DNA from: Actinomycetota bacterium
GTDB lineage: Bacteria > Actinomycetota > Humimicrobiia > Humimicrobiales > Humimicrobiaceae
Length of the DNA stretch: 64,000 nt
Direction of reading: 5' to 3'
Assembly (NCBI GenBank): GCA_016870615.1
Contig: VGAZ01000001.1
Location: 6,481-70,480 of the forward strand
The notes under the pieces were generated by a model. The model was given only the letters and a program-made list of their open reading frames with translations. It made no database searches and was not told the origin of the DNA. Positions 3,247 through 51,426 of this stretch are shown piece by piece. The position numbers and the translations under genes were made by a program. Positions within the stretch are counted from its first letter, which is position 1. The number at the start of each line of letters is the position of its first letter.

Positions 3247-3551
3247 TTAGCCCCCAATTATATAATAGATTATTTTTAAATATTACAGCTTAATTCCCGC
3301 TTAATTATTATCCGGATAATTATAAATAATTTTTTGTGATGTTACACTTAAAAAGTTTTTAAATCCTGCAAAACACAAAAAACTATTCCCTGTGCAACAA
3401 TCAAGGTGGCAATCTTCTATCATGCCTTAATCGAATAGAAAGTAATTACTGTAAATATAAAAAAATAATTGCTGGCACAGTTTTATTTCCAGCAATATTG
3501 ATTATTTTTGAATTGGCATTATCATAAAACCATTTAACCGGATTTCATAAC

Positions 3552-4526
3552 TTAGTAGGCATATAATTTGCCGTACGGGCGGTGTGAATGAGGGGAAAGC
3601 TTGACAAAGTTTTTTAACCTGCCTGAAATCATTTTTTCATAATCAGCTTTAAAAAAACTGCAGTAATTATTTATATATTGCTTGAGGACTTCAATATCAT
3701 TTTTATCAGGTTCTGCCTTTTTTACTTCTTTTCCAATTTTATACTCATCCACATCCCCGCATATAAATATTTTTCCGCCATGCATGCCAGTTCCTGCAAA
3801 ATCCCCTACAACAGAGCTTGAGGATGTTGAGTAAAATTTTTCAAAATAATATGTTTTTTCAAATTTCTTGCCGCCAGTGTCTTCAATATTTTTATCTTCA
3901 CCTAAATCTTCAGGTCCGCTGCCGGCGCTGCCTTGTTGCCCGAGCACAATTATAAGGCCGCCTGCCATATATTCCCCAAGAAAATTTCCTGCCCTTCCGC
4001 CAATGACTATTACAGGAAATTTATCAAGATAGGATTTCATGTGGATCCCGCTTCTCCAGCCGACATTATCCCTGATATAAATTTCTCCGCCGCGCATTGA
4101 ATACCCCGTAATATCTCCGCTGCTGCCATGGACTATTATTTTTCCGCTGTTCATAGTATTGGCCAACCCGTCCTGGGCATTTCCAAAAACCTCAATCTGC
4201 GGCCCGTCCATAAAAGCGGCCATATCATTTCCAGGCACACCGTATATTTTTATTTTAAAATTGCCTTTAATGCCATCACCGATATATCGCTGGCCTATTA
4301 CATTTTTTAAAGAAATTGTAAGCGGGCCATCTTTTTCTTGCGGCTGCCCGTAAATTTTATTATTTACAGCCTGCAGGTTTTGGGATTTCGCTGCGTCTGC
4401 GTATTTTACAGGCGCCGCATTTTTAATTATTTCTTTTAATGCACTGTTCAGTATGCGGTAATGCATATCTTTTGCATCAATTTCATACTCCATATTTTTA
4501 TGCATTTTAACCTCAGGCATCTTCAT
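3552..4526 (-). CDS. glutamate synthase GXGXG-domain protein (GltB domain 3 homolog)
   Basis: It carries repeated G-x-G-x-G beta-helix motifs (KIYGVPGNDMAAFMDGPQIEVFGNAQDGLANTMNSGKIIVHGSSGD...IVIGGRAGNFLGEYMAGGLIIVLG). It is the last gene of the split glutamate synthase cluster. Confidence 0.8.
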   Translation of the reverse strand: MKMPEVKMHKNMEYEIDAKDMHYRILNSALKEIIKNAAPVKYADAAKSQNLQAVNNKIYGQPQEKDGPLTISLKNVIGQRYIGDGIKGNFKIKIYGVPGNDMAAFMDGPQIEVFGNAQDGLANTMNSGKIIVHGSSGDITGYSMRGGEIYIRDNVGWRSGIHMKSYLDKFPVIVIGGRAGNFLGEYMAGGLIIVLGQQGSAGSGPEDLGEDKNIEDTGGKKFEKTYYFEKFYSTSSSSVVGDFAGTGMHGGKIFICGDVDEYKIGKEVKKAEPDKNDIEVLKQYINNYCSFFKADYEKMISGRLKNFVKLSPHSHRPYGKLYAY

Positions 4527-4588
4527 TTTTATAAATTTCCTTTCAATTAGCTTAAAGGCGCAAAAATAAAAAAAGGGGCTATTTCTTT

Positions 4589-5995
4589 TTATACCTCAAT
4601 TCCTTCACCTACCACAAGATGTTTCCTGTAATCTGCAGGCAGCTGTATAAGGCCGAAATCTTCCTTTACAATATTTTCCCCTATTTCAGATACATCAACA
4701 TTATTATTTATAAGCCCCCAGTAAATCCCGGCTCTTTCAATTGCGCCTATAAGTATTGCCCCGACTGCCCTGTTTTGCCTTACAACAATTTTACGGTATA
4801 TTTTCCTGTCCGTATCATGTGATTTATATACTTTTAAATCTTTGTTTTTGTCATCATATTCAATGCTGCTCTGCCCAAGCGAAATCATGGGCATGCCAAG
4901 TATTTCAACAGAGTTCATTAAAAATCCCCCTGGATATGCAGTATCTATGCCTGACATATTACTGCCTGCAACTTCACCTTGCTTAACTGCTATTGGCCAT
5001 ATGGCCATGTTTTTGTCGCTGCCGGAAAGCACGTCATGGCTTTTTACAATATCCCCCGCAGCATATATATTGTCAATTGATGTTTTCATCCTGCTGTCAG
5101 TAATTATCCCGGCATCTGTTTTAATGCCGCTGTTTTTTAAATATCCTGTATCCGGCAAAACCCCGACAGCCAGTATAAGCAAATCAGACGGTATCTTTCT
5201 TCCATTGCTGAGCTTAAAAGAATTAATGCTGTTATTTTCTGTATATATTTCTTCAATTGTCTGGCCGCAGTATATGCTGCTGCCTGACTTCTTTATTGCC
5301 TCAATGAGTATGCCGGAAGCAGTTTCATCAAATGAAGCAGACAGCAGTTTATCAGAAAGCTCTACTATATTTATATTTAAATGCAGCCCAAGCAATGCTT
5401 CAGCAGCTTTTAAACCTATAAGGCCTCCTCCAAGTATAGATGCGGTTTTTATTGAATACTCATTGATATATTTTCTTATCATGATTGCATCATCAAGTGT
5501 TGTGAGGGTAAAAATTCCCTTTACGGAACTCATTGCCTCATCCAGGCTTAGGGTTTTACCTGTTTTATCGATAACCCTTATTTCTGGAATTATTGGCCTG
5601 CCTCCGCTTGCAATAAGAAGCTTATTATATAAATACTGGTTTCCCTGCTCTGTTATAGCTAAATTATCACTGCTCTTTATTGATACAACATTTTGGTTTG
5701 TTTTTAAATCTATATTGTTTTCTTCATAGAAATTGCTTTTTTTAAAATAAAGATTGCCGGGTTCAAGCCTTCCGGCAAGATAGTATGTTGTGAGAGGCTT
5801 TGAGTAATTACTGTATTTTTCCTTTGTCAGAACGGTAATTGGCGAATTTTTATCATTTTTCCTTATATTTTCTGCAGCAGAAAGCCCTGCAGCAGAATTG
5901 CCTATTATAAGGTAGTCTGTATTAAGAATGTTTTTATTTTTAACCATTTTTATATTCATTCCTTTCGCGCTTCCCGAAGCGCTGAACGCTTTCAA
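4589..5995 (-). CDS. FAD-dependent pyridine nucleotide-disulfide oxidoreductase (probable electron-donating subunit of the glutamate synthase complex)
   Basis: It has an N-terminal FAD Rossmann motif DYLIIGNSAAGLSAAE, a second dinucleotide motif ILGGGLIGLKAAE, and AAGDIV. The real start is probably M13 or M17 of the listed ORF. Confidence 0.75.
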   Translation of the reverse strand: MKAFSASGSAKGMNIKMVKNKNILNTDYLIIGNSAAGLSAAENIRKNDKNSPITVLTKEKYSNYSKPLTTYYLAGRLEPGNLYFKKSNFYEENNIDLKTNQNVVSIKSSDNLAITEQGNQYLYNKLLIASGGRPIIPEIRVIDKTGKTLSLDEAMSSVKGIFTLTTLDDAIMIRKYINEYSIKTASILGGGLIGLKAAEALLGLHLNINIVELSDKLLSASFDETASGILIEAIKKSGSSIYCGQTIEEIYTENNSINSFKLSNGRKIPSDLLILAVGVLPDTGYLKNSGIKTDAGIITDSRMKTSIDNIYAAGDIVKSHDVLSGSDKNMAIWPIAVKQGEVAGSNMSGIDTAYPGGFLMNSVEILGMPMISLGQSSIEYDDKNKDLKVYKSHDTDRKIYRKIVVRQNRAVGAILIGAIERAGIYWGLINNNVDVSEIGENIVKEDFGLIQLPADYRKHLVVGEGIEV

Positions 5996-31908: not shown

Positions 31909-32328
31909 TCACTTTTTAATATTAAATATATTCCTGAGCATTTCTCTTTCAGTTGTCCTGTAAATATAATAATCTGAATCTATTGTTATTATCTCTTTTA
32001 TTCCCAGTCTTTCAGATATGATAACAAGTGTTGCATCTGCCAAATCCATTGGTATATCAGAATACTTTTCTGAAAGCTTAATTATTTTATCTATTTCTCC
32101 TGTTTGTATATCTTCAATTTTTAATCCGCCAAGTCTTATCCATTTTAAAAAATCTATTTGTGCACCTACATTGAAATCGAGCATGTGGCATGTCTCTGTT
32201 ATGACTGGCCAGCTGGTTGTAAGCAATCCTTTATAGTTCTTAATGAGCTCTTTTATTTTCTCATGATATTTATCATTTTTATTAAATAATGCTATAAGTG
32301 GCCCTGCATCAATGAGAGTGTTTTTCAT
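31909..32328 (-). CDS. vapC: PIN-domain ribonuclease toxin VapC
   Basis: It has the N-terminal LIDAGPLIAL motif with the first acidic residue, the PIN fold acidic residues and a C-terminal ITIDSDY motif. It overlaps the upstream small gene by 20 nt. Confidence 0.75.
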   Translation of the reverse strand: MKNTLIDAGPLIALFNKNDKYHEKIKELIKNYKGLLTTSWPVITETCHMLDFNVGAQIDFLKWIRLGGLKIEDIQTGEIDKIIKLSEKYSDIPMDLADATLVIISERLGIKEIITIDSDYYIYRTTEREMLRNIFNIKK

Positions 32329-32554
32329 GAAGTTTTTCCTTCAGTTTTGTTTTATAATTACTGGATAAAGAATTGCTGCTGCCGTATCTTCCAAAAAGGT
32401 CTGCGCCAAGTTTAAATGGCATGAAATCTTTTGAGCGCATGTCATAGTATTCAATTATTGCTTTTTTAATTACTTCAGATTTTGTTGTTTTTTCAATCTC
32501 AGTCAAAGCAGCAATCTTATTTAATATTTCATTGTTTAATCTCACAGTTGTCAT
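32309..32554 (-). CDS. vapB: VapB-type antitoxin (ribbon-helix-helix-like)
   Basis: The 81-aa product has the N-terminal TVRLNNEILNKIAALTEIEKTTKSEVIKKAIIEYY segment consistent with RHH, and is translationally coupled to vapC. Confidence 0.5.
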   Translation of the reverse strand: MTTVRLNNEILNKIAALTEIEKTTKSEVIKKAIIEYYDMRSKDFMPFKLGADLFGRYGSSNSLSSNYKTKLKEKLHEKHSH

Positions 32555-32847
32555 ATTGTTACCTCCGTATTACATATTGTATTACATTTTAATCTGCTGT
32601 CAATAGGACGAAAAAACGATATATTATTTTTAATTGTAATCAGCAAAAAACAAGCTTTATATGACATACATACCGGAATGGCTGGCCCGGGTAGTGAAAT
32701 TTCGAAACAATTTATTTTGGAAATTACCAAGTTTAAAAAATTTTACATAAATTTTAAAATAGCCAGTTTGGTGTAAATCATTATTATGTTATAATAAAAA
32801 AGTGTTATAACTCTTAGTTGATTGATTCTAAAATTTAATTTTATTAT

Positions 32848-33051
32848 TTGGTTGGTACAATGTATACGAAAATTAAAATAGTTTACTGGAAAGGTGAAAA
32901 ATTCTGGTTGGGTAAAATTCTTGAACACCCTGAAATTATGAGCCAAGGTGAAACTATTGAAGAACTTGAAGAAAACCTAAAAGATGCCTATAGGCTAATG
33001 CTAATGGATGATGTGCCCTCAGATTATCAGCTAAAAGAAATCTCAGTATGA
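32848..33051 (+). CDS. hicB: HicB-family antitoxin
   Basis: The 67-aa product has the HicB/UPF0150 pattern (YWKGEKFWLGKILEHPEIMSQGETIEELEENLKDAYRL). Its stop overlaps the hicA start. Confidence 0.6.
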   Translation: MVGTMYTKIKIVYWKGEKFWLGKILEHPEIMSQGETIEELEENLKDAYRLMLMDDVPSDYQLKEISV

Positions 33052-33230
33052 AACGCAGCGAACTTTTGAAGCAAATAAAAAAAGAAGGCTGCATATTTTT
33101 AAGACCTGGTTCAAGACATGATATTTATATAAATCCCAAGACTGGGCAAAAACAACCAGTACCCAGACATTTAGAAATTGATAATGACTTGGCTAAGCAT
33201 ATTAAGAAATATCTTGGTATTATAAAATAG
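33048..33230 (+). CDS. hicA: HicA-family mRNA interferase toxin
   Basis: The 60-aa product matches the HicA/YcfA pattern (SELLKQIKKEGCIFLRPGSRHDIYINPKTGQKQPVPRH...IKKYLGI). Confidence 0.75.
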   Translation: MKRSELLKQIKKEGCIFLRPGSRHDIYINPKTGQKQPVPRHLEIDNDLAKHIKKYLGIIK

Positions 33231-34848: not shown

Positions 34849-35580
34849 TCAAATCATATTTTTCTGCCGAAAGCTGAAATATCCGCTCTCAGCGACAATT
34901 AAATGGTCAAGTACCTGTATGCCGACAATCGCGCAGGACTTGCAAAGCCTGTTTGTAATCTCAATATCATCAATGGAGGGTTCAGGGTCACCGCTTGGGT
35001 GATTATGCAGAAATATCACTGAGGCTGCAGATGATTTAATCGCTATTTTTAATACTTCCCTGGGATGAACTATCGATGAAGTCAGGGATCCCTGCGAAAC
35101 AAGCACTTCCTTTATTATTTTGTTTTTAACATTTAAAAGGACAAGCCTGAATTGTTCATTTTTTAAATCTTTAAGCAATGGTATATAATAATTTGCAACT
35201 TCTTCACTGCATTTAAAACTTGTATTGCTTCCGTTCTTTTGTGACACAGCACGCCTGCCAAGCTCAATTGCAGCTACAAGCTGCGCTGCTTTTGCAAGCC
35301 CGATACCCTTTATTTCTGACAGCTCATTAACTGATGCATCCATAAGCCCGCAGAGATTTTCATAACACAGAAGAACTGATTTGGCAAGATCCAGGGCTGA
35401 GGCGCTGCCGCCATTTTTACCTGTTCCTGTCCTTAAAAGTATGGCTATTAGCTCAGAGTCTGAAAGCGCTTCACTGCCAAGCTTTAAAAGCTTTTCCCTG
35501 GGCCTTTCGCTTTGTGGCCATTTATTGATGGGGATGTGTTTAAATTCACTTTTGTTAAAATTTGCCAGTTTTTGCTCCAT
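34849..35580 (-). CDS. radC: RadC-family JAB/MPN domain protein
   Basis: An N-terminal HhH segment is followed by the JAMM motif HNHPSGDPEPSIDD. Confidence 0.85.
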   Translation of the reverse strand: MEQKLANFNKSEFKHIPINKWPQSERPREKLLKLGSEALSDSELIAILLRTGTGKNGGSASALDLAKSVLLCYENLCGLMDASVNELSEIKGIGLAKAAQLVAAIELGRRAVSQKNGSNTSFKCSEEVANYYIPLLKDLKNEQFRLVLLNVKNKIIKEVLVSQGSLTSSIVHPREVLKIAIKSSAASVIFLHNHPSGDPEPSIDDIEITNRLCKSCAIVGIQVLDHLIVAESGYFSFRQKNMI

Positions 35581-35787: not shown

Positions 35788-36039
35788 TTTTTTTTCATTA
35801 ATTAAGATTATGAAATACAATTACATGCATAGGATAGTTTTACTGACTTAGTTAATAATTTGTATTTTTAGAAAAGAGATATATTTCAATTAACAGGCGT
35901 GGCATCTTTTGATAAGCGGACATCGTTAGAAAAAACAGTCCGGTTTTAACTTTTAAATGACAAATTTAAATTTAATATTGACTAATATTTTTTTGTCTTA
36001 TATTATTAAAATGCAGGTTGGAGCAGTCCTTCCTGTTAT

Positions 36040-36073
36040 CAATCGCCCGTTGCAAAAGACGGGCATTATTTTT
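36040..36073 (+). terminator. intrinsic terminator-like hairpin GCCCGU-UGCAAAAGA-CGGGC followed by AUUAUUUUUUU (plus-strand orientation)
   Basis: The stem-loop plus U-tract reads correctly only on the plus strand, although the adjacent large gene is on the minus strand. Confidence 0.35.
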
Positions 36074-36091
36074 TTCTTTCAAAAATGTTGC

Positions 36092-39000
36092 TTATGTCTT
36101 TTTATTCTGCAGATAATCAATCATTGGCTGCGAAACAAGAGGCACCAGGTCCTTAATCATATGGGGCATGAGATTTGCCATTACCTCAGGCATCATCGCG
36201 GGCATCTGCTCCCTCATATAATCAGGCATTGGGATCCTGTCGCCTATTCTTTCAAGCATTACATTCATCACTTTGGGCATCATTTTTGGTAAAAGTATAG
36301 GGAAAAGTACAGGAAATAACCCTTTCATGGCGTTTAATGCTCCTGGAATCTTACCCATAAACCTCATCATGCCGCCCATTTTAAGGGGCATAGAATCAAT
36401 TAATTCAGGCCACATGGTTGCCATAAGCTCTGCAAAACCTTTAGGCGACATAAGTGCAATCATAGCTTCAAATACAGCCCACTGCTTCTGGACTTCAATA
36501 TCTGGATCAGGGTATTCATATCCCAGATAGGAAGAAGCAAACCTTGCAAGATCTACTATTTCAACATCAATATTTTTCTTATCCTTTGTAACCCTGAACT
36601 GGAACTCGCAGCATGGACACAGTGCAACTACTTTTTCCGCACCTGCTGCAAGCGCTTCATCAAGCCTTTCCTTGCCAACCTCTGCCGCCACTGCCGGTTC
36701 TTTAATCAACGTTAAAACGCTTCCGCAGCAATGAGCCTGCTCCCTGTTGTATTCCATCTCAACAAAATCAACCTTTGGCAGTGCCTTTATAACTTCGCGC
36801 GGAGCATCATATACTCCTGAAACCCTTCCTATATGACAGGAATCATGCCAGGTCACCCTGACAGGACTTGCCCCATCATCAGGAAAAGAAAACTGGCCGG
36901 ATTTTATTTTATCTGCAAGCAGCTCGCTGTAATGTACTGCTTTTATATTGTATTCCATGCCCAATTTTTTGGCCCACTCAGGATAAACATTGCGCCACAT
37001 CATATCACATGCCGGGCAGGAAGAAACAACTGTATCTGCCCCTATATCCTGTATTGCTTTTATATTTGATTTCATTGTTTGCTCAAAAACATCCCATTTA
37101 CCTGCAACAAGCATAGGGGTTCCGCAGCAGTTTTCATTTTTTCCTGCGTAAGCAAAATCAATGCCTGCCCTGTCAAGCAGCCTCACTGTTGCCTGGGCTA
37201 TATCCTGCTCAACATAGCTTGCGGTGCATCCCGCAAAATAAGCGATTTTTGCTTTCTTTGCCGGGCCGTATTTATCCTTCAGCTCAGCAGGAAACCATTT
37301 TTCCCTGTCTTTTCTGTATCCTGCCCAGATATCACCCTGGCTCTGAAGAGCAGCTGACATCATCTCAAACGGGGGTATGGTCATTTTCTTTTCAGTATTT
37401 ATAAGCTGGCCCCTCATTTTCATCCAGGATTGCTCAATAGGAAGATTTGCGGAACATTTGAGATTGCATATTTCACATGTCGTGCATGCAAGAAATGAAT
37501 CAACCATATCCTGTGACCACTTTTGACTGCCCTGCATATATAGCCTTAACCAGTACCACCTTCCCCTCGGTCCCTGGCTTTCCCAGCCCCTGCCATAGAA
37601 TTCATCGCATTCCGGGACACAGTATCCACATTGCGAGCAGGCATAAGCATACCAGGCAACATCTGCAGGCACTGATTTTACAGGCTTTAGCGAAGGCTTT
37701 TCTGCAAAGCGCTTTGTTATGCGGTTTGAAAAGGGCCTGATGACTGGTTCGGCCAATTCTGCAAGCTTCATAACAAAATTGATTTTTCCAAATCCAAAAA
37801 CTTTTCCCGGATTAAAGATATTATTCTTATCTTCTGCAGTTTTAAAATCCCTTATTTTGTCATAATGGTTAGCGCCAAGTATGGCTTTTGCCTTATTTGC
37901 AAAATATATTCCAGCAGCAAAAGGTCTTCCCCCATATTTTAATGCTATCTTCATTATTGAAAGTGAAAGGACAAAAACAAAATTATAACTGAATCTTCTT
38001 TCATCACTGGGGATAAAGCCTAAAACAACAACTTCTGGTTCGCTGTTTTTTCCATTTTTTAACAGAACGCCTTCCTTAATTACAGTGTGCTTTATTACTC
38101 TTTTTATTTCCCTGCTTACACCAGAAAGCGATGAAAGGGGTATTATAAATTCTGCAGGCACAAGACTTGGACCCAGTCTTTTTACAACCATGATCTTGAA
38201 CCTGTTTTCCCATTCATGTTTTGCTATAGCATCGTCAAGCCTTGTTGCAGATGCCATTTCAAGCACTTCCGGAAGTTTTTGGTTAATGGTTTCCCTGTCC
38301 TTTTTGCGGAAAGTCAATGTTACAATATAGGCTGAAGGAAGCAGTACCTTCTTTTCAGCGTCATGGCCCAAATGTGTCCTTAAGGGGGAAAGGTTTTTTA
38401 ATTGGGCCATTTCAGGATTAATATAAAGAACGGACCAGAAAGGGATATCCTTTTTAACAATAATTTCAAAAAACTTCTGCAGGTTTTCTTCATCAGGTAT
38501 GCCCACCGAAATTACTTCCATATCTTCAAGTTTCATTACTTTTATTTTCATTGAAGATATTAGCCCGGTAATGCCTTCCGCATCAGCTATATACCCTAAA
38601 TCATCCCCCTTAAATTCTTTTACGCTGCCGTCAGGAAGGACAACTCTTGCGCTTATTACATTATCCTTAAACATCCCGGCCTCATATGCGCCAATTCCAG
38701 TGCCCCCATTTGCAAGCCATCCCCCGGCTGTTGAGCCTGGGTAGCTTGACGGGTAAAGCTTTAAAGTAAGCCCCTTTTTGCCAAGCTCCCTGTCAAGTTT
38801 TTCCCAGATAATGCCCGGCATAACAGTTGCGCTCATCTCTTTTTCATTTATTTCAATTATCTTGCTCATCCTGTAAAAATCAACGACAACGCCATTTGAA
38901 AGCGGAAGCACTCCCCCGTAACCTGAGGTAGCCTTACCTCTCGGGATAAGGGGTATTTTATTATCATTTGCCCACAGGGCAAGTTTTATTAATTCCTCTT

Positions 39001-39178
39001 CTGACTCCGGCTGGACCACCGCAGAAGTAAGCGTATTTCCAATAAAAGGCTTAACAAGGGCAGGAATTGACGCTATATCATGGCTGTACAATTTCCGCTC
39101 TGTTTTATTAAAAGAAACCCTGCCGCCAAGCATACTTTTAAGTTCTTCCATGGCTTTTTTTTGCATATATTCCCCCAA
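36092..39178 (-). CDS. fused FAD-linked oxidase / 2x[4Fe-4S] / double CCG-domain oxidoreductase (YdiJ- or GlcD-GlcF-like 2-hydroxyacid dehydrogenase) with Met-rich C-terminal tail
   Basis: An N-terminal PCMH FAD-binding domain (PLIPRGKATSGYGGVLP) is followed by a ferredoxin segment (CSQCGYCVPECDEF, CTTCEICNLKC), two CCG domains (NCCGTPM, HCCGSVL) and a ~130-aa tail containing more than 25 Met. Confidence 0.8.
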   Translation of the reverse strand: MGEYMQKKAMEELKSMLGGRVSFNKTERKLYSHDIASIPALVKPFIGNTLTSAVVQPESEEELIKLALWANDNKIPLIPRGKATSGYGGVLPLSNGVVVDFYRMSKIIEINEKEMSATVMPGIIWEKLDRELGKKGLTLKLYPSSYPGSTAGGWLANGGTGIGAYEAGMFKDNVISARVVLPDGSVKEFKGDDLGYIADAEGITGLISSMKIKVMKLEDMEVISVGIPDEENLQKFFEIIVKKDIPFWSVLYINPEMAQLKNLSPLRTHLGHDAEKKVLLPSAYIVTLTFRKKDRETINQKLPEVLEMASATRLDDAIAKHEWENRFKIMVVKRLGPSLVPAEFIIPLSSLSGVSREIKRVIKHTVIKEGVLLKNGKNSEPEVVVLGFIPSDERRFSYNFVFVLSLSIMKIALKYGGRPFAAGIYFANKAKAILGANHYDKIRDFKTAEDKNNIFNPGKVFGFGKINFVMKLAELAEPVIRPFSNRITKRFAEKPSLKPVKSVPADVAWYAYACSQCGYCVPECDEFYGRGWESQGPRGRWYWLRLYMQGSQKWSQDMVDSFLACTTCEICNLKCSANLPIEQSWMKMRGQLINTEKKMTIPPFEMMSAALQSQGDIWAGYRKDREKWFPAELKDKYGPAKKAKIAYFAGCTASYVEQDIAQATVRLLDRAGIDFAYAGKNENCCGTPMLVAGKWDVFEQTMKSNIKAIQDIGADTVVSSCPACDMMWRNVYPEWAKKLGMEYNIKAVHYSELLADKIKSGQFSFPDDGASPVRVTWHDSCHIGRVSGVYDAPREVIKALPKVDFVEMEYNREQAHCCGSVLTLIKEPAVAAEVGKERLDEALAAGAEKVVALCPCCEFQFRVTKDKKNIDVEIVDLARFASSYLGYEYPDPDIEVQKQWAVFEAMIALMSPKGFAELMATMWPELIDSMPLKMGGMMRFMGKIPGALNAMKGLFPVLFPILLPKMMPKVMNVMLERIGDRIPMPDYMREQMPAMMPEVMANLMPHMIKDLVPLVSQPMIDYLQNKKT

Positions 39179-39363: not shown

Positions 39364-40305
39364 ATGTCAAAAAATAATAATTTTAAAAAATTATTGGCAG
39401 AATGTATGCTTTGCCCCCATATGTGCAGGGTAGACAGGGCAGCGGGCCAAAAAGGCTTTTGCAGGGCAGGAAACACTGCCATAATATCGTCTTCTATGGC
39501 CCACCATGGTGAAGAGCCCCCTTTATCCGGTAAATATGGTTCAGGAACAATTTTCTTCTCACACTGCAATATGAAATGTGTTTACTGCCAGAACTACCAG
39601 ATAAGCCAGGAGCACACAGGGAATACTTTTTCAGCTATCCAGATTGCCTCAGAAATGCTTAATCTGCAAGGGCAGGGGTGCCACAATATTAATCTTGTAT
39701 CCCCTACAATTTGGATTCCGCAAATAGCGGAAGCTTTCTTTATTGCAAAAGAATCCGGGCTAAAAATACCTGTTGTTTATAATACCGGGGGATATGAAAG
39801 AAAACAGGTAATTAAGCTGCTGGAGGGGATCATAGACATATATATGCCTGATATAAGATACAGCAGCGACAATATGGCCCAGAAATACTCAGGTGTAAAA
39901 AATTATGTTAAAAATAACCGGCAGTCATTAATAGAGATGTACCGCCAGGTGGGCGGTCTTGTATTTGATGGTAACGGAATTGCAAAAAAAGGGCTGCTTA
40001 TAAGGCTTTTGGTGCTTCCGGGAAATATCGGGGGCGTTAAAGAAACACTTGATTTCATAAAGGATGAATTATCGCCAGATGTATATTTAAGCATAATGGC
40101 GCAGTATCACCCGGAATATATGGCCTTTAATTACCCGGAACTTTCCCGCAGCATTTTACCCGGTGAATACTTCCAGGTAGTGGAGTATGCAGAAAAGCTT
40201 GGCCTTGTAAACGGCTGGATACAGGACTATACTCCGCCTGAAAAAGATTTTTTCAGGCCAGACTTTAACAGGGAAAAAGTTTTTAAGTATTACGAAGACA
40301 AATGA
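39364..40305 (+). CDS. radical SAM protein, PflX (COG1313) family
   Basis: The N-terminal CPHMCRVDRAAGQKGFCRAG segment matches my recollection of the PflX N-terminus, and a CNMKCVYCQN radical SAM triad is present. Confidence 0.65.
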   Translation: MSKNNNFKKLLAECMLCPHMCRVDRAAGQKGFCRAGNTAIISSSMAHHGEEPPLSGKYGSGTIFFSHCNMKCVYCQNYQISQEHTGNTFSAIQIASEMLNLQGQGCHNINLVSPTIWIPQIAEAFFIAKESGLKIPVVYNTGGYERKQVIKLLEGIIDIYMPDIRYSSDNMAQKYSGVKNYVKNNRQSLIEMYRQVGGLVFDGNGIAKKGLLIRLLVLPGNIGGVKETLDFIKDELSPDVYLSIMAQYHPEYMAFNYPELSRSILPGEYFQVVEYAEKLGLVNGWIQDYTPPEKDFFRPDFNREKVFKYYEDK

Positions 40306-45856: not shown

Positions 45857-46495
45857 TTATCGTTTTACCGCTTCAACAAATTTTTTAGCAGCAGCTGATG
45901 CATCCGGAGCATATATTTCTATACCATACATGTCAGCAAAATGCTGTGTAACAGGGGCCCCGCCTACTGCAAGGGCAACTTTGTCCCTGAGCCCTGCATC
46001 CTCTATAGCCTTTATATGGGCAGGAATGTTGGCAAGAGTTGTTGTTAAAAGGCCTGAAAATGCAACAATGTCGGGGCTGTTTTCTTTTATTGCAGTTACA
46101 AAAGTTTCATAATCAACATCTATGCCAAGATCTATTACCTTAAAACCCTGCCCCTCTGCCATTGTTATAACAAGGTTTTTGCCTATATCATGAAGGTCGC
46201 CTTTTACAGTGCCTATTAAAAGCGTTCCTTTTTCTGAAATATGTTCTGAGCCTTTAAGAAGCGGCTTTATATAATCCATTGCTGTTTTCATTGCCTTTGC
46301 AGCAAGAAGCATATCAGGCATGTATAGCTCGCCTGAACCGAATTTATCCCCCACCTCTATCATTGCAGCAGAAAGGGCATTGTTTATAATATCATCAAGA
46401 GGCTGGCCTTTATCTATTGCATCCTTAACAAGCCCCTGCATGTCTTTATAATTACCTGCAACTACTGCATCGTAAATTTCCTTCAATTCTGACAT
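45857..46495 (-). CDS. methyltransferase cognate corrinoid protein (B12-binding)
   Basis: An N-terminal B12-binding-2 helical cap is followed by a Rossmann B12 domain with the DxHxxG motif (GDLHDIGKN). Confidence 0.85.
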   Translation of the reverse strand: MSELKEIYDAVVAGNYKDMQGLVKDAIDKGQPLDDIINNALSAAMIEVGDKFGSGELYMPDMLLAAKAMKTAMDYIKPLLKGSEHISEKGTLLIGTVKGDLHDIGKNLVITMAEGQGFKVIDLGIDVDYETFVTAIKENSPDIVAFSGLLTTTLANIPAHIKAIEDAGLRDKVALAVGGAPVTQHFADMYGIEIYAPDASAAAKKFVEAVKR

Positions 46496-46539
46496 TTATC
46501 TCTCCTTTACTTTTATTAATTGCAAAGATTATTAATTTT

Positions 46540-47643
46540 TTAATATGCTCCGTATTTATGTATTGCATTTATATATGCAATTACATTTTCATGCGGTATG
46601 TAATTCACTACTGAGTGGGAAACAGTTGCAACATAACCGTAACCCGGTTTTAAAACTTCCATGTGAGCCTTTACATCTGCATCAACGTCTTCAGGTGTGC
46701 CTTTTGACAATGGAAACTCTATATCAACATTGCCTGAAAGGCAGAGCCTGCTTCCATATCTTTTTTTATACTCAACATAATCAACTCCATAGGGATCCAT
46801 TGGATTAAGGCAGTCAAGGCCTATTTCTATAAGGTCCTCTACTATATCATCTATCCTGCCGTCGGAATGAAACATTATTGGTATTCCTGCATTTAAAGCA
46901 GGCTCAAAAACACGGGCCATTCTTTTTACCCACATTTCCTTAAATATTTTAGGAGGTATAAAAAGACCGGTTTTAAAAGCAACATCATCAGCTGGAAATA
47001 CAAAATCCACACCCGCATCAACAAGTGCTTTAGTTAGGTTTACAAAATGCTCGCATGATACTTCAAGCATATCCTCAACAAGTTCCCTGTCCTCGTATAC
47101 CATCATCATAAAATCATTCATGCCTACAACAAATTCATAAGGAGTTTGCAGCATGCATCCATAAAGCGCAGATACGCCGATTTTTGAATTTCTTTTGTTT
47201 ATAGCATCTTTATATTCCTTAACATACCCTGCGGCACTATTTATGCTATTCTCCGAATCAAGCACCAGTGCGTCAAAATCCTTCCTTGTCTTTACTGACC
47301 TGTCATAAGCAGGTACAAGCTCACCCTTTTCATTATATTTTTTAAAGGGAGTCCAGATGCCCCCGTCAAACATCATTGCGTCCTGGCCCACAATATTGCA
47401 CAAATCTATGAAATCATCAGGAAACATGGGCCTGCCCTGTTCTGCATCCGCGCCTTTGGCAGGATCCCCGCCATATGATAAAGTATTTCCTGCAAACCTG
47501 CCAAGCAGCTTTTCAACATGCTGGTCCTCATAAAGGACTTCAAAATTTGGAACCCTGTCAACAGGCTTTCTCTTAAACGCTGCCAAAAGTCTTTCCTTGT
47601 CCGGTCCGCCTTTAAAGGGTTCTATTGTTTTTGTGTTTATCAT
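46540..47643 (-). CDS. uroporphyrinogen decarboxylase (UroD/MtaA/CmuA) family methyltransferase
   Basis: It is 367 aa with a UroD-fold TIM barrel (N-terminal VDRVP, C-terminal FHSDGRI...LNPMDP). It lies beside a corrinoid protein. Confidence 0.7.
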   Translation of the reverse strand: MINTKTIEPFKGGPDKERLLAAFKRKPVDRVPNFEVLYEDQHVEKLLGRFAGNTLSYGGDPAKGADAEQGRPMFPDDFIDLCNIVGQDAMMFDGGIWTPFKKYNEKGELVPAYDRSVKTRKDFDALVLDSENSINSAAGYVKEYKDAINKRNSKIGVSALYGCMLQTPYEFVVGMNDFMMMVYEDRELVEDMLEVSCEHFVNLTKALVDAGVDFVFPADDVAFKTGLFIPPKIFKEMWVKRMARVFEPALNAGIPIMFHSDGRIDDIVEDLIEIGLDCLNPMDPYGVDYVEYKKRYGSRLCLSGNVDIEFPLSKGTPEDVDADVKAHMEVLKPGYGYVATVSHSVVNYIPHENVIAYINAIHKYGAY

Positions 47644-47802
47644 TTTTACAAACCTCCGTAACTGCCTGTTATAGTATTAGAAAAGATGAGTTAAATAATA
47701 TTTTTATTATATGCAATTTATAGCAGATATGCAATAAATCATGCTAATTTTGCAATAAATTTTTACTGCATACCCGTTTGATAATGAACGCGGCCATAAA
47801 AA

Positions 47803-48123
47803 TCAATCCAGGTGAAACACCTCTTCGAGCATCTCTATTTCAGGGCCCAGCGTATTTTTATCTTCCTTGATAAAGTATTTTTCCATATGCTCCTGCCACT
47901 TTTTATTGAGCTGTGTGCTGCTTATCTTTTCCATGGAAGCGTTAAAGTCATCAGCTTCAAGATATGCAAAAAGAGTGCCGTCCCCGCGGAAATATATTGA
48001 ATAATTTCTAATGCCTGAATCACTTATTACTTTTGCAAACTCGGGCCATATCTGGTCATGTGCCTTTTTATATTCAGCCTTAAGCTCAGGTTTGATTTTA
48101 AAAACAAATGCCGCCCTTGCCAT
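47803..48123 (-). CDS. rhaM: L-rhamnose mutarotase
   Basis: It is collinear with E. coli RhaM as I recall it (AAFVFKIKP, HDQIWPEF, NYSIYF, EEVFHL). Confidence 0.85.
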   Translation of the reverse strand: MARAAFVFKIKPELKAEYKKAHDQIWPEFAKVISDSGIRNYSIYFRGDGTLFAYLEADDFNASMEKISSTQLNKKWQEHMEKYFIKEDKNTLGPEIEMLEEVFHLD

Positions 48124-48182
48124 TAACGCAACCTCCTAAATAGAAATATTTGACTATATTTAAACCGGTAAATGCCCCAACT

Positions 48183-49163
48183 TTATTTGAAAATAAGATC
48201 TGTTATAAGATCCATATTATCTGCAAACCTGTATCCTTTGATGTTTTCGTCGATTATCTTCTCATTTTTAAGAAGCTTTGATGCAAGGTCCTGGAATTTG
48301 TGCGTCAGTTTTACTCCAAGAGCAAGGGATTTTGCCCTGTCATCCCTTGGGGCTATTATATCTATCGCGCACCAGCCATCATAATTTGTTTTATTAAGAT
48401 AATAATAAAATTCTAGTATTTCCCAGAAATTTACAGTCCCGAAAATCATGTCTGGGTCTGCATCCTTGTAATTTTCATTGATATGTATCTGGTAAAGCTT
48501 TCCCCAGTAATCAAGAAGCGCAACAGACTCCCCTATGCCTTCTGCTGCAACAAGAGCATGGCCGATATCAAGGGCGCATCCGACATTATCAAGCCCGACA
48601 TCGTGAATAAACGCCATTGCTTTTCCTGTGTCCCCTATATACTGTTTCTGCCTCGGATCCTTAAGCTTTGCCTCAATGGCAATTTTCATATCCTTTGCAT
48701 ATTCGCCTATTTCCCTTACAGTTTCAACCAAATATTTCCAGCCCTGCACATAATTAACCTGGAAAACATAATCATAACCGTCATGCGCGGGCCACAGAAG
48801 CACACTTTGCGCATTTACCGCTTTTGCAAAATCAATGGCCTCCTTAAACAGCTTTACAGCTTCTTTCCTTATTTTTTGATCATTGGCGCAGAAAGAGCCA
48901 TGCCTCCATTTCCTGTCAGCAAAACATTCTACTGCCACATTTGAGACCTTAAGACCGTAATCGCCTATTTTTTTAACCAGCTTATCTGGGTCATTTGGAA
49001 GAGGAGCTGTTGGATAAAAAGTAAACAAACCGTCAAGCCCCTTTATTTTGGACATAATTTCAAGCTGCTGTTCCACACTCATTTCGTCATAATAACCCCC
49101 GGGAACATATCTTTCAGCATAGGTACCAAGACACCATAGATGCGCATCCACATTCAGTTTCAT
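48183..49163 (-). CDS. sugar phosphate isomerase/epimerase (xylose isomerase-like TIM barrel) family protein
   Basis: It has an AP-endonuclease-2/XI-like TIM barrel pattern (VLLWPAHDGYDY, ALDIGHALVAAEG, YQIHINENY). Confidence 0.6.
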   Translation of the reverse strand: MKLNVDAHLWCLGTYAERYVPGGYYDEMSVEQQLEIMSKIKGLDGLFTFYPTAPLPNDPDKLVKKIGDYGLKVSNVAVECFADRKWRHGSFCANDQKIRKEAVKLFKEAIDFAKAVNAQSVLLWPAHDGYDYVFQVNYVQGWKYLVETVREIGEYAKDMKIAIEAKLKDPRQKQYIGDTGKAMAFIHDVGLDNVGCALDIGHALVAAEGIGESVALLDYWGKLYQIHINENYKDADPDMIFGTVNFWEILEFYYYLNKTNYDGWCAIDIIAPRDDRAKSLALGVKLTHKFQDLASKLLKNEKIIDENIKGYRFADNMDLITDLIFK

Positions 49164-49238
49164 AACTATTGCCTCCAGTCATTAAGTAAATAATAAATCA
49201 ATAATCTCTATGGTATTTTTTACCATAGAGGCGGTAAT

Positions 49239-50423
49239 TTATGCCTTTTTATTTAAACCATCAATTATTTTATTAAGGGCATTCCTGTAATAGGTAAAAT
49301 TATCCCATGTGCAGTCCTGTGACACAAAATGGTCTATATGCGGGATATATCTTCCCTTTTTTAAAAGCTCTGCAGCTATTGAAAGCTCCGCGTCTATTTT
49401 TGCCCTGGTGGAGCCTTCAAAAAGCACGCGCTTATCTATTCCACCCATGAGCTGGAAATCCGGGAAATTTTTCCTTATGCGCAGCATATCATTTCCGGCA
49501 GCCCTTTCAAAAGGATACATTCCTGTAACGCCTGTCTCAACAATTAAGGGGATAAGGTCCTCAACATAGCCGTCGCTGTCTGTAAGGATTATGTCAATAC
49601 CTGCCTCTTTTGCAAAATTGACAATTTTTTTATAGCGGGGCCTTAAAAATTCCCTGAAATGAGCAGGCGATATAAGGGAGCCTCCCTTGCCTGCCATATC
49701 CTCCCATATAAGTATGCAGTCCACTTTAACATCATTTACTATTGCACCGTAATACTCCAGAAGGAAATTACAAAATGTTTCGCATATATCATGAATGAGT
49801 TCAGGGTCATCATACATTACCATCATATAATCAGTAAGCCCCATTATCTGCCTTGGAAAGCCTAAAAAACCGCCGTTTGTTCCTCCAAGGCGTATGGGAA
49901 AATCCCTGTCCTTTAGCCTTGCGGCAAGGTTATCCCAGTCTGGCGGAAGCCGTTTCTTTATTGTATTGCTGCTGTAATGCTGTTTATACTCCTGCCAGCT
50001 TTTTTTGTCTTTTACCGGGTGGGCAAGCTCCATTGGAAGTGATGTTATATGTATGTCGTTTTTTAATGTGACGCCGTATTCGTCTTTATATATTATATGG
50101 GTATCAGTTTTGTCGATTTCTTCTATTTTAAACATGGGGCTGTAGTCCACCGGAAATTTTGTAAGATACTGGTCAAGCCCAAACACCGGCTGCACATTGA
50201 CATCGCCTGCTTTTTCCATATCAGCATAAATATTCTTATTTGCCATTATTGCTATGCCGTCAGATATTTTATCAGGCACAGGCTCTATCATTTTAAGGCC
50301 CTGGTCAAACCACCGCCTGATGGTGCCTGCCCAGTAACCAAATTCCACCATGGGGACCTGGACACCGCTATAGTCACCATCTGCCATGCGCATTACAGAT
50401 AAAAATTTTTCTCTTGAGTTCAT
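49239..50423 (-). CDS. UroD/MtaA-family methyltransferase (paralog 2)
   Basis: It is a paralog of 55354..56628 (EFGYWAGT, CILIWEDMAGKGGSLISP, ILTDSDG). The start is trimmed to MNSREKF by analogy with the paralog's MDTREKF; the listed ORF extends to 50483. Confidence 0.65.
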   Translation of the reverse strand: MNSREKFLSVMRMADGDYSGVQVPMVEFGYWAGTIRRWFDQGLKMIEPVPDKISDGIAIMANKNIYADMEKAGDVNVQPVFGLDQYLTKFPVDYSPMFKIEEIDKTDTHIIYKDEYGVTLKNDIHITSLPMELAHPVKDKKSWQEYKQHYSSNTIKKRLPPDWDNLAARLKDRDFPIRLGGTNGGFLGFPRQIMGLTDYMMVMYDDPELIHDICETFCNFLLEYYGAIVNDVKVDCILIWEDMAGKGGSLISPAHFREFLRPRYKKIVNFAKEAGIDIILTDSDGYVEDLIPLIVETGVTGMYPFERAAGNDMLRIRKNFPDFQLMGGIDKRVLFEGSTRAKIDAELSIAAELLKKGRYIPHIDHFVSQDCTWDNFTYYRNALNKIIDGLNKKA

Positions 50424-50445
50424 AATCATTATTAATCTAATTATA

Positions 50446-51426
50446 TCAATACAGTTGCAAATGCCTTTTGTTCCTGAATGCATCTATTGCTATAACAAGA
50501 ACCAGCAAAGCGCCTTTTACAACCATTCTCAGGAATACAGGAACATTTAGAAGCACCATTCCGTTTGTAATTGTCTGGATAATTATAAGGGCTATAAAAA
50601 CTCCAAGATAGTTACCCCTGCCGCCACCGACAACCACTCCGCCAAGAACTACAATAGTAAGAACCTCAAGCTCTGCACCCGTGCCATACTCTGGCCTTCC
50701 TGAGCCAAGCTGAGAGATAAGCAATAGCCCTGCTACAGAACAGAAAAAACCGCTTATAACATATGATAATATTTTTATACGGTCAACAGGTATACCGGCA
50801 AGCCTGGCAAGTGTTTCGTTGCCTCCAATGGTAAAAAGATCCCTTCCGAACCTTGTGAACTTTAATATGAGAGTTAAAGCTACAAATGCAATGATTATAT
50901 AAAGAGTAGTTATTGGAAATACATTACCAAGATAAATCCTTCCAAAATTCTGCACAAATACATTATATACCCTGGGATTTAAATCAGCCCAGAAATAGCA
51001 AACTCCCCTGAAAATAGCAAGTGTGCCCAGCGTTGTAATAATAGGGTTTATTCCCACTTTTGTAATTATAAGCCCGTTAATTAAGCCTACAGTGCATCCT
51101 ATTGCTATAGCTATAAGAAAGACCCAGGGAGTAGCTACCTCTATTCCTTTCATTAACAGTACTGAGCTCACTATGCCTGCAAGACCTGCAGTTGAACCAA
51201 TTGCTAGATCAAAACCTCCACCAATCATTACAACAGTCACTCCTGCTGCTAGAATCCCAAATACTGCAAAATTATTATAAATTCCTTTAATGTTCTGTAT
51301 TGTAAGGAATTTATCGCTTGTAAGGGAAAATAGCAGCATCATAACAATATAAATTCCTATCAGTGTAGGTGTTGGTGTTCTTAAAAAACTTAAAAACCCA
51401 GAATATTTTTTCACAGCTTTTTCCAT
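50446..51426 (-). CDS. sugar ABC transporter permease (CUT2/RbsC-like)
   Basis: It has about 9 TM helices and a BPD_transp_2 pattern. Confidence 0.8.
   Translation of the reverse strand: MEKAVKKYSGFLSFLRTPTPTLIGIYIVMMLLFSLTSDKFLTIQNIKGIYNNFAVFGILAAGVTVVMIGGGFDLAIGSTAGLAGIVSSVLLMKGIEVATPWVFLIAIAIGCTVGLINGLIITKVGINPIITTLGTLAIFRGVCYFWADLNPRVYNVFVQNFGRIYLGNVFPITTLYIIIAFVALTLILKFTRFGRDLFTIGGNETLARLAGIPVDRIKILSYVISGFFCSVAGLLLISQLGSGRPEYGTGAELEVLTIVVLGGVVVGGGRGNYLGVFIALIIIQTITNGMVLLNVPVFLRMVVKGALLVLVIAIDAFRNKRHLQLY

Follow-up and report, generated by a model that had tools for sequence, protein, structure and literature searches.

The window is a 64,000-nucleotide stretch of DNA from an Actinomycetota bacterium of the family Humimicrobiaceae (assembly GCA_016870615.1, contig VGAZ01000001.1). 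On its minus strand lies a gene for a large oxidoreductase with an FAD-binding part, an iron-sulfur part, and a cysteine-rich part fused in one chain, which ends in a methionine-rich domain (the tail). The features of the gene are listed below, with positions in the window and residues in the 1,028-aa numbering.

36092..39178, minus strand: fused FAD / 2x[4Fe-4S] / 2xCCG oxidoreductase with a Met-rich C-terminal domain (ORF list, Pfam, homologs)
38612..39025, minus strand: FAD_binding_4, residues 52-189 (Pfam PF01565, 126 bits)
37799..38524, minus strand: divergent FAD-linked-oxidase cap domain, residues 219-460 (PF02913)
37442..37642, minus strand: 2x[4Fe-4S] ferredoxin-like dicluster domain, residues 513-579 (Pfam Fer4_17)
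36593..37237, minus strand: two CCG (HdrB/HdrD-type) cysteine-rich domains, approximately residues 648-862 (Pfam PF02754, two stretches)
36500..36592, minus strand: linker from the second CCG domain to the Met-rich domain, residues 863-893, with a conserved PDPxPEV (alignments A1 and A2)
36110..36499, minus strand: Met/Pro-rich domain predicted to form six helices, residues 894-1023 (Met count, AF2, conservation, dN/dS)
36236..36340, minus strand: long helix 5 of the tail, residues 947-981, with Pro at i, i+4, i+8, and i+12, FPVLFPILLPKMMP (DSSP, helical wheel)
36263..36319, minus strand: most hydrophobic 19-mer of the tail, LFPVLFPILLPKMMPKVMN (octanol scale, Kyte-Doolittle)
36110..36223, minus strand: long helix 6 of the tail, residues 986-1023, with repeated (L/M)MPxxM, QMPAMMPEVMANLMPHMIKDLVPLV (DSSP, helical wheel)
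36092-36094, minus strand: stop codon

Counted from a TTG codon, the open reading frame encodes 1,028 aa. An NCBI protein (P0121) is 100% identical to its product and has a length of 1,019 aa; therefore, the ATG at 39151 is probably the true start. In the window, the gene looks monocistronic, with a divergent gene upstream and the next downstream ORF 511 bp away. The N-terminus (MQKKAMEELKSMLGGRVSFNKTERK), read directly, has neither a hydrophobic h-region nor a twin-arginine motif, and the enzyme, which carries cytoplasmic cofactors, looks cytoplasmic.

The fused FAD/Fe-S/CCG architecture is as the original prediction described it, with Pfam matches to FAD_binding_4, FAD-oxidase_C (weak), Fer4_17, and two CCG stretches. 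FAD_binding_4 scores above the Pfam gathering threshold, which places the enzyme among the VAO/PCMH FAD-linked oxidases. The cap domain scores 19.9 bits against PF02913, below the cut-off of 21.2, compared with 231 bits for YdiJ. In Foldseek, the full-length model matches structures of D-lactate dehydrogenase and AGPS (TMt 0.56-0.79, E down to 2e-19); because both are FAD-linked oxidases, the N-terminal half is presumed to account for this match. All eight dicluster cysteines (C505/508/511/515 and C556/559/562/566 in the numbering of alignment A2) are invariant, as are the CX..CCG..CxxC cysteines of both CCG motifs across the 52 sequences of that alignment. The CCG assignment rests on a score of 124.2 bits against a cut-off of 20.6, and these domains are putative binders of non-cubane [4Fe-4S] clusters with disulfide- or quinone-directed activity. 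The linker that follows them is modeled with low confidence (pLDDT 57-64 in the full-length model).

Comparison with named enzymes does not favor the label of hydroxyacid dehydrogenase that had been given to this protein. Escherichia coli YdiJ, a D-2-hydroxyglutarate dehydrogenase, has a similar length (1,018 aa) and likewise fuses FAD_binding_4 to an Fe-S domain. The identity between the two FAD domains is only 31% over 145 aa (BLASTP), and YdiJ has neither a Pfam CCG match nor a Met-rich tail. The YdiJ equivalog (NF049975) gives 69.2 bits against a cut-off of 1350, with the FAD domain alone aligned, and GlcD (TIGR00387) gives 110 bits against 568, both far below threshold, and the FAD-oxidase_C match is weak. 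The GEHG motif, whose histidine is a metal ligand or catalytic residue in the YdiJ/GlcD/D-LDH group, is missing from the oxidoreductase, where "FA--AGIY" aligns with the "WGEHGKG" of YdiJ (BLASTP).

The C-terminal half is closer to a different set of proteins. Residues ~505-870, in which two complete CCG motifs come after two CxxCxxCxxxC motifs, form a module common to proteins of the TfrB, LdhH, GlpC, GlcF, and HdrD type. The best NCBIfam similarities are to TfrB (158 bits against a cut-off of 385) and LdhH (152/800), followed by GlpC (109/278), GlcF (66/333), and DsrK (45/400); none of the equivalog cut-offs for GlcF, GlpC, TfrB, LdhH, DsrK, HmcF, or TmcB is reached. The matches stop at query residues 860-879, 3-22 positions short of the ends of the TfrB, LdhH, GlpC, GlcF, HmcF, and TmcB profiles, all of which lack the ~140-residue C-terminal extension of the oxidoreductase. 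DsrK is an exception: its match stops at residue 826 of the query and at position 376 of the 453 in the profile. The tail thus has no counterpart in YdiJ, in GlcD/GlcF homologs, or in any named CCG family. Unlike those modules, that of the oxidoreductase has an N-terminal FAD domain fused to it, and no membrane partner gene of the HdrE or DsrM type adjoins it. The best PDB sequence match is to the Fe-S/CCG part of 9ojn, a 1,042-aa "iron-sulfur-binding reductase" that we tentatively take to be mycobacterial EtfD.

The tail stands out by its composition. The last 130 residues of the protein hold 23 methionines (17.7%, versus 3.1% in the other 898 residues), slightly fewer than the "more than 25" first counted, although some homologs reach 26-30; the three tail peptides quoted in the original prediction are all present in the ORF. 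Given the window's methionine frequency of 2.9%, the binomial probability of at least 23 in 130 is 4.6e-12, and among the window's 46 open frames of 200 codons or more, the next-richest 130-residue stretch holds 10. The methionine richness is therefore real (P ~5e-12). The methionines are densely spaced as MxxM, MM, MxM, and MxxxM on the helices. The tail also contains 15 prolines (in a 135-residue stretch), no cysteine, and one histidine; 52% of its residues are AILMFVW and 11% are proline, its net charge is +2, and its GRAVY is +0.24 versus -0.19 for the rest of the protein. Base composition was rejected as the origin of the methionine richness: across genomes of 28% to 71% GC, the methionine fraction of the tail stays at 14-19% and is independent of GC (r = -0.04).

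Rather than a loose string of Met motifs, the tail is predicted to be a folded domain. AF2 models it alone with high confidence (pLDDT 88.9, pTM 0.78) as six helices, which the full-length model reproduces (DSSP of the models: 894-909, 912-920, 923-928, 931-942, 947-981, and 986-1023), and an autonomous all-alpha six-helix domain is therefore predicted. The two long helices, 5 and 6, have low whole-helix hydrophobic moments (0.11-0.13), with local 11-mers reaching 0.5-0.66. Aligned to each other with hhalign as a possible internal duplication, they gave P=9e-4 and a probability of 23%, a weak and composition-biased signal. On the Wimley-White octanol scale, the 19-mer LFPVLFPILLPKMMPKVMN in helix 5 has a free energy of -5.5 kcal/mol; only one other 19-mer window of the whole protein is more favorable. 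It also holds the tail's Kyte-Doolittle 19-mer maximum of 1.40, and no window attains the usual transmembrane threshold. The tail alone matched no Pfam family at E up to 1 and no NCBIfam family; its profile, searched against PDB sequences, did no better than a noise-level E of 0.26, and its model found no fold match among PDB structures. The likeness to the SRP54 M domain that had been suggested is thus not borne out by Pfam or by PDB folds.

More than 120 full-length homologs (1,019-1,039 aa, 99-100% coverage) bear the tail in frame. Its mean pairwise identity of 82% exceeds that of the whole protein (74%) and of the FAD and CCG domains, making it the second most conserved module of the enzyme. 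Its dN/dS of about 0.03-0.12, with dS saturated, indicates that it is under purifying selection. The tail is thus not a product of low-complexity drift. Most tail methionines are invariant in the 27- and 52-sequence alignments, as are the interleaved prolines and hydrophobic residues, and all faces of the helices are conserved. In divergent homologs, methionine is swapped for L/I/V/F/Y/A and rarely for S, T, G, or C. Among 31 deeply divergent cluster representatives, 29 retain 16-24% methionine; the other two have 6.6% and 9.2%, offset by extra ILVF, with proline staying at 10-15%. Histidines number 0-3 per tail, and neither cysteine nor histidine is conserved. These substitutions suggest that methionine acts in the tail as an exchangeable hydrophobic residue.

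The chance that the tail arises from an upstream frameshift or from untranslated sequence is negligible: databases do contain some short "tail-only" entries from long contigs, but the tail is in frame in more than 120 homologs and under purifying selection, and P0020, the only short entry checked, is a fragment of a gene (locus L085) that frameshifts in the assembly have split into pieces of 138, 736, and 155 aa. The remaining short entries begin inside the CCG domain or off-consensus, which suggests that they are likewise fragments of frameshifted genes, and we rejected them as stand-alone tail proteins.

The tail-bearing enzyme occurs in 541 species genomes from many bacterial phyla and from Methanoperedens, an archaeon that oxidizes methane. 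At least 10 phylum-level host labels are represented, among them Actinomycetota, Chloroflexota, Zixibacteria, Gemmatimonadota, Ignavibacteria, WOR-3, Desulfobacterota lineages, and Planctomycetota. Methanoperedens is the sole named archaeal lineage among the 80 loci listed; one further locus (L036) is labeled just "uncultured archaeon." Going by taxon labels, the hosts look to be mostly anaerobic or sediment lineages. The tail was found solely at the C-terminus of the architecture FAD_binding_4 + 2x[4Fe-4S] + two CCG, always after the second CCG, and on no other architecture among 1.84 billion representatives. It is universal in the orthologous family but carries no known role: we found no description in the literature of a Met-rich domain in CCG, flavin, or Fe-S enzymes, and papers on ANME, Methanoperedens, and DsrMKJOP do not mention the tail-bearing oxidoreductase. 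By these comparisons, the tail is a previously undescribed domain, specific to one orthologous oxidoreductase family.

We clustered all ORFs of 83 related loci to search for recurrent neighbors. No membrane-protein or electron-transfer partner gene recurs in these loci, and no Msr gene recurs near the oxidoreductase. The sole recurrent neighbor is a regulator of the ArsR family; an ArsR/SmtB-family metalloregulator lies directly upstream in 38 of 68 related loci (56%), and none is present in the window itself. With such a regulator upstream, the enzyme could have a metal-related role.

Our preferred reading, which we advance tentatively, is that the tail serves for docking, as a deformable hydrophobic module that lies next to the terminal CCG cluster and provides monotopic access to the membrane or to a quinone. 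Electrons would pass from the substrate to FAD, through the two [4Fe-4S] clusters, and on to the two CCG-type clusters. The tail, tethered ~30 residues past the last CCG domain, would offer a large deformable hydrophobic surface lined by flexible methionine side chains. This surface could seat an otherwise soluble-looking enzyme monotopically on the cytoplasmic face of the membrane and give a lipid-soluble acceptor or donor, with menaquinone the most plausible candidate, access to the terminal CCG cluster. Other CCG enzymes leave this task to amphipathic helices or to a distinct membrane subunit; SdhE, GlpC, and GlcF, which are CCG subunits of quinone-linked enzymes, are proposed to act as monotopic anchors by means of amphipathic helices (PMC2754724). 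Because Methanoperedens is reported to use menaquinone, not methanophenazine (PMC4683180), this acceptor may be common to the bacterial and archaeal hosts.

We infer this membrane or quinone docking, whereas the existence, translation, conservation, helicity, hydrophobicity, and family specificity of the domain and the absence of a partner gene are results of the analyses above. The hydrophobicity of the tail, its -5.5 kcal/mol 19-mer, its position C-terminal to the second CCG domain, and the lack of a membrane partner gene all speak for docking. Other observations speak against it. The long helices, with moments of 0.11-0.13, are not classical amphipathic surface helices. Many peripheral membrane anchors are markedly cationic, and the net charge of the tail is just +2. 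Its Kyte-Doolittle maximum of 1.40 also falls short of the usual transmembrane threshold. The very high conservation of the tail is unusual for a simple lipid anchor and fits better with a specific ligand or protein interface. The ArsR/SmtB neighbor also counts against docking, as it could point to a metal-related role instead. Among the roles originally put forward, a membrane or partner anchor fares best, while metal binding and antioxidant protection lose ground.

A parallel for docking is offered by NDH-2 and sulfide:quinone oxidoreductase, in which, as proposed for the tail, a C-terminal helical appendage on a single-polypeptide flavoenzyme reaches a lipid-soluble acceptor; both are described as monotopic (PMC5299459, PMC9666304). 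Their anchors are short amphipathic helices that are not Met-rich, whereas the tail is a 130-residue domain with low whole-helix amphipathicity and little charge. Moreover, these anchors are probably poorly conserved.

An unlikely alternative is that a Met-lined groove in the tail grips a hydrophobic helix in a partner protein whose gene lies elsewhere, such as an electron carrier or a small membrane protein, or else a lipophilic part of the enzyme's substrate, with no contact with the bilayer. The SRP54 M domain, the Get3 groove, and the Sgt2/SGTA C-domain resemble the tail in being all-alpha, very Met-rich, and ~100-130 residues long, and these Met-rich helical grooves are established binders of hydrophobic helices. 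The flexibility of methionine would explain why it is preferred and yet exchangeable for I/L/V/F, an identity of 82% suits a specific interface, and the FAD domain bears a resemblance to alkyl-DHAP synthase as well, an enzyme that acts on lipid substrates. However, no partner gene is conserved nearby in the 83 loci, the tail matches neither SRP_SPB nor an STI1-type family in Pfam (E up to 1), and no structural match to SRP54-M or Get3 was found in the PDB. The tail also differs from these domains in the regular prolines (i, i+4, i+8) within its long helices, in its far higher sequence conservation, and in being part of a redox enzyme, whereas those domains belong to targeting factors. Finally, it follows the CCG end of the electron chain and not the FAD substrate site.

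Equally unlikely, in our judgment, is a purely structural role, in which the tail is a hydrophobic helical hairpin for dimerization or oligomerization, or a lid on the CCG domain, with methionine filling a packed core. Conservation of every helix face is what would be expected if all faces were packed, and the isolated tail is modeled with a high pTM. Such a role leaves unexplained why 29 of 31 divergent lineages keep 16-24% methionine instead of a Leu/Ile/Val core, and related CCG enzymes work without such a domain. In addition, 52% hydrophobic residues plus 11% proline probably exceed what a 130-residue helical domain could bury on its own.

The Cu(I)/Ag(I) reading of the Met motifs is disfavored. 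In this reading, which we consider improbable, MxxM/MxxxM motifs would bind Cu(I), Ag(I), or a different thiophilic metal, so that the tail could sense or buffer it or shield exposed Fe-S clusters. The tail shares its density of MxxM, MxM, and MxxxM spacings, along with MM pairs, with CusF, CopC/PcoC, the Met-rich insert of CueO, the Mets motifs of Ctr1, and SilE, and the metalloregulator upstream in 38 of 68 loci would suit such a function. Yet ArsR-family members also sense non-metals, and the window has no such regulator. Cu(I) sites made up of Met alone are typically found in proteins of the periplasm or outside the cell, and the known Met-motif Cu(I)/Ag(I) sites are extracytoplasmic and usually include His or Asp; the tail is His-poor (0-3 His in each tail, with no conserved His or Cys), and it belongs to a cytoplasmic-looking enzyme in which no signal peptide is seen at the N-terminus (MQKKAMEELKSMLGGRVSFNKTERK) and the cofactors are cytoplasmic. 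Known Met-rich metal segments are also poorly conserved, varying between orthologs, and often disordered, unlike the tail, which is 82% conserved and confidently folded in AF2. Because two divergent lineages retain the domain at 6.6-9.2% Met, with methionine replaced by I/L/V/F, obligatory metal ligation is argued against.

Least plausible among the functional readings, and very improbable, is a sacrificial antioxidant tail whose surface methionines scavenge oxidants to guard oxygen-sensitive clusters. Methionine is dense near the Fe-S domains, but scavenging does not need position-specific invariance of methionine, proline, and hydrophobic residues; the hosts look mostly anaerobic or sediment-dwelling by taxon labels, and no Msr gene recurs nearby in the 83 loci.

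A more speculative extension of the docking reading, which we consider doubtful, is that the tail is a new self-contained membrane/quinone-docking domain that makes an HdrD-like module into a one-polypeptide respiratory dehydrogenase, replacing the cytochrome b or other membrane subunit on which modules of this type normally depend. In that case, the near identity of the tail sequence between many bacterial phyla and Methanoperedens would reflect a horizontally mobile, plug-in entry to menaquinone pools.

The family to which this enzyme belongs is widespread and unusually conserved, and it has no assigned substrate or acceptor. The tail is its most conserved part other than the cofactor sites, is extreme in composition, and is described in no database. 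As a 130-residue autonomous fold, it is also a tractable target. If the tail is a membrane/quinone interface, it would explain how an HdrD-like module works without a membrane partner, and its sequence would provide a signature by which to find quinone-linked dehydrogenases of this stand-alone kind in anaerobes. Should the tail bind a soft metal or a partner helix instead, it would represent a new conserved Met-based recognition module. Under either reading, the tail merits definition as a family (a DUF-type entry).

A methionine-rich C-terminal tail of about 130 residues had been predicted on the oxidoreductase, and our counts confirm it. The last 130 residues contain 23 Met (17.7%, versus 3.1% in the remaining protein; binomial P of at least 23 Met ~5e-12), so that the richness holds while the original figure of "more than 25" was slightly too high; every peptide quoted in support was found in the protein. 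Its Pro count is 15–17, varying with the exact stretch taken; Cys is absent and His occurs once. The other long open frames of the 64-kb window have at most 10 Met in any 130-residue stretch. Base composition was ruled out as the cause because the Met fraction is steady at 14–19% over 73 related loci with GC contents from 28% to 71% (r = -0.04).

The ORF (36092..39178, minus strand) encodes 1028 aa when counted from a TTG. Since the identical NCBI protein (P0121) has 1019 aa, translation probably begins at the ATG at 39151. Pfam supports the predicted fusion of FAD, Fe-S and CCG modules:

Residues 52-189: FAD_binding_4
Residues 219-460: FAD-oxidase_C, weak, score under threshold
Residues 513-579: Fer4_17 dicluster
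C-terminal limit at residue 862: two CCG domains

The electron path (FAD, dicluster, two CCG domains) is complete on one stand-alone enzyme, with the tail tethered past the terminal CCG domain. Residues 887-1028 gave no Pfam or NCBIfam match, even at E up to 1.

A tail-only query returned 370 proteins, with 69–79% identity among the 120 matches listed. The whole-protein query returned >120 homologs (1019–1039 aa, 64–100% identity), and because these cover 99–100% of the query, the tail is in frame with the enzyme in all of them. By mean pairwise identity in a 52-sequence alignment, the tail (82%) is the second most conserved module, after the Fe-S dicluster (87%) and ahead of the CCG domains (76%), the FAD domain (74%) and the whole protein (74%); most of its Met positions are invariant in the alignments. 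Tail dN/dS against five homologs was 0.03–0.12, an approximate ratio as dS is saturated. The tail is therefore a genuine, translated domain under selection, and given these ratios and the full-length in-frame homologs, an origin from an upstream frameshift or untranslated sequence has practically no chance of being correct. In L085, a related locus, the oxidoreductase gene (1885-4968) is broken up, appearing as three overlapping ORFs (138, 736 and 155 aa), which explains at least some short "tail-only" database proteins. Other such entries on long contigs start mid-domain, and the class looks like assembly artefacts, L085 being the one examined.

Open frames also run antisense to the tail:

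35957..36292, plus strand, in the window
36273..36530, plus strand, in the window
4923..5513, minus strand, in the related locus L025

Some are strikingly His-rich (e.g. ...HMGHEICHYLRHHRGHLLPHIIRH...), because an ATG codon reads as CAT on the opposite strand. Shadow ORFs of this kind are present in 56 related loci; we attribute them to conservation of the sense strand and do not regard them as genes.

AlphaFold2 modeling, a step called for in the original prediction, gave a confident fold from a 27-sequence tail alignment (pLDDT 88.9, pTM 0.78), with six predicted helices (residues 894-909, 912-920, 923-928, 931-942, 947-981 and 986-1023 in 1028-aa numbering). The full-length model (pLDDT 77) has the same six helices, with pLDDT ~80–90 over much of the tail. 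In the two long helices, FPVLFPILLPKMMP and MPAMMPEVMANLMPHMIKDLVP, Pro recurs at regular 4- or 8-residue spacing, as does an (L/M)MPxxM motif. The tail is more hydrophobic than the rest of the protein (GRAVY +0.24 versus -0.19), AILMFVW make up 52% of its residues, and its net charge is +2. The 19-mer LFPVLFPILLPKMMPKVMN has the second lowest Wimley-White octanol free energy of any 19-mer window in the protein (-5.5 kcal/mol); no tail window reaches the Kyte-Doolittle transmembrane threshold (maximum 1.40). Hydrophobic moments are low over whole helices (0.11–0.13) and 0.5–0.66 in local 11-mers. These features define the tail as a conserved helical domain, autonomous, hydrophobic and rich in Met and Pro.

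Comparison with known enzymes, also proposed originally, yielded no counterpart of the tail. E. coli YdiJ has only the FAD domain in common with the window protein (31% identity over 145 aa), with no Pfam CCG match and no tail. NCBIfam scores all fell far under their cut-offs: YdiJ, 69 bits (cut-off 1350); GlcD (TIGR00387), 110 (568); GlcF, 66 (333); TfrB, 158 (385); LdhH, 152 (800); and GlpC, 109 (278). Matches to TfrB, LdhH, GlpC, GlcF, HmcF and TmcB end at query residues 860–879, 3–22 positions before the profile end, so these proteins stop where the tail starts; the DsrK match stops earlier (query residue 826, profile position 376 of 453). The enzyme belongs to the VAO-type FAD and CCG superfamilies and to no characterised family. 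Its earlier label, hydroxyacid dehydrogenase, is unproven, because FAD-oxidase_C scores under threshold and the GEHG motif of YdiJ ('WGEHGKG'; KYGGLLWGEHGKG) is replaced, aligning to 'FA--AGIY' within 'KYGGRPFA--AGIY':

~37850-37990, minus strand, lost-GEHG site, residues ~404-425 (1028-aa numbering) or 395-416 (1019-aa numbering)

Given the replaced motif and the low FAD-oxidase_C score, a D-2-hydroxyacid may not be what the FAD domain oxidises. Our searches for the tail came up empty in Pfam, NCBIfam, the PDB (by sequence and by fold) and the literature; we regard it as an undescribed domain.

A tail profile matched only 250 of 1.84 billion cluster representatives. Every match was a fragment or the extreme C-terminus of a ~1000–1030-aa protein, and those divergent full-length representatives that we examined share the layout of the window protein; the tail is therefore restricted to the FAD/dicluster/2xCCG architecture. 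The GTDB species genomes contain 541 stretches coding for it, and the best 80 of these (70–83% identical) represent Actinomycetota, Chloroflexota (Dehalococcoidia, Anaerolineae, Thermoflexales), Zixibacteria, Gemmatimonadota, Ignavibacteria, WOR-3, Desulfomonilia, Syntrophaceae, Thermodesulfobacteriota, Planctomycetota and, as the only archaeal lineage named, Candidatus Methanoperedens (contigs L018, L025 and L047). The L025 copy is full length (1029 aa), and one neighboring ORF resembles a PheRS beta subunit of archaeal type. The Methanoperedens ortholog is 76% identical to the window protein in the tail and 61% outside it. These data suggest inter-domain horizontal transfer of the gene, plus very strong constraint.

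The oxidoreductase gene looks monocistronic in the window, which also holds the following features:

39364..40305, plus strand, divergent radical-SAM gene upstream of the oxidoreductase
34849..35580, minus strand, next downstream ORF after a 511-bp gap, RadC/JAB-like in appearance
36045..36064, GC-rich hairpin GCCCGTTGCAAAAGACGGGC, 28 nt past the oxidoreductase stop codon
31909..32328, minus strand, PIN/VapC-like ORF, overlapping the next
32309..32554, minus strand, small antitoxin-like ORF
32848..33051 and 33048..33230, plus strand, HicB/HicA-like pair
45857..47643 and 49239..50483, minus strand, cobalamin-binding corrinoid-protein-like ORF (212 aa) adjoining uroporphyrinogen-decarboxylase/MtaA-like ORFs (367 and 414 aa)

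The hairpin may end oxidoreductase transcription; the terminator scan scored it on the plus strand only, because its T-run lies on that side. From their translations, the two pairs at 31909..33230 look like toxin-antitoxin modules, and the ORFs at 45857..50483 resemble a methyltransferase system that acts on methylated substrates.

Among clustered ORFs of 83 related loci we found no recurrent membrane or electron-transfer partner. The sole recurrent neighbor is an ArsR/SmtB-family HTH regulator (~110 aa, passing NCBIfam NF033788), located directly upstream on the same strand, 46–378 bp off, in 38 of the 68 loci with enough upstream DNA, and absent from the window. A Cys precedes the 'DPxRL' helix in all three representatives compared. 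Examples of the regulator lie at:

L057, 1991-2320
L001, 5600-5941
L032, 2000-2326

This regulator may report an inducer or substrate of the oxidoreductase. In L085, the ArsR-like gene is separated from the oxidoreductase by an outer-membrane transporter of the FadL/Toluene_X type (527-1759), which handles hydrophobic compounds.

We then examined substitutions in 31 representatives with near-complete tails, from clusters built at 50% identity. Met made up 15.6–24.3% of the tail in 29; the other two were Met-poor (6.6% and 9.2%), with I/L/V/F up to 32–36% and Pro unchanged at 10–15%. At the Met columns of the window protein the usual replacements are L, I, V, F, Y or A; S, T, G or C each occur singly in a few columns. 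Because of these replacements and the I/L/V/F gain in Met-poor lineages, we conclude that Met, while strongly preferred, works as a hydrophobic residue. Get3, Sgt2 and SRP54 have Met-lined, flexible hydrophobic surfaces, and the substitution pattern fits such a polarisable surface. A tail that grips a partner helix or lipophilic substrate like a helical hand is unlikely in our estimate, and we hold a purely structural or oligomerisation role equally doubtful. Soft-metal binding, of the Cu(I)/Ag(I) type originally proposed, is kept alive by the ArsR neighbor but is improbable, being weakened by the lack of conserved Cys or His in any column, the apparently cytoplasmic location, the high conservation and the Met-poor lineages. 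The substitution pattern also argues against Met as an indispensable metal ligand. That the Met serve as an antioxidant sink is very improbable.

Our preferred, still tentative, reading is that the tail is an interface with the membrane and a lipid-soluble acceptor, most likely menaquinone. In support of this reading, a monotopic anchoring role is proposed for SdhE, GlpC and GlcF (PMC2754724), and Methanoperedens is reported to use menaquinone (PMC4683180). The tail would then be the enzyme's contact to both, standing in for the membrane subunit or amphipathic helices of other CCG enzymes.
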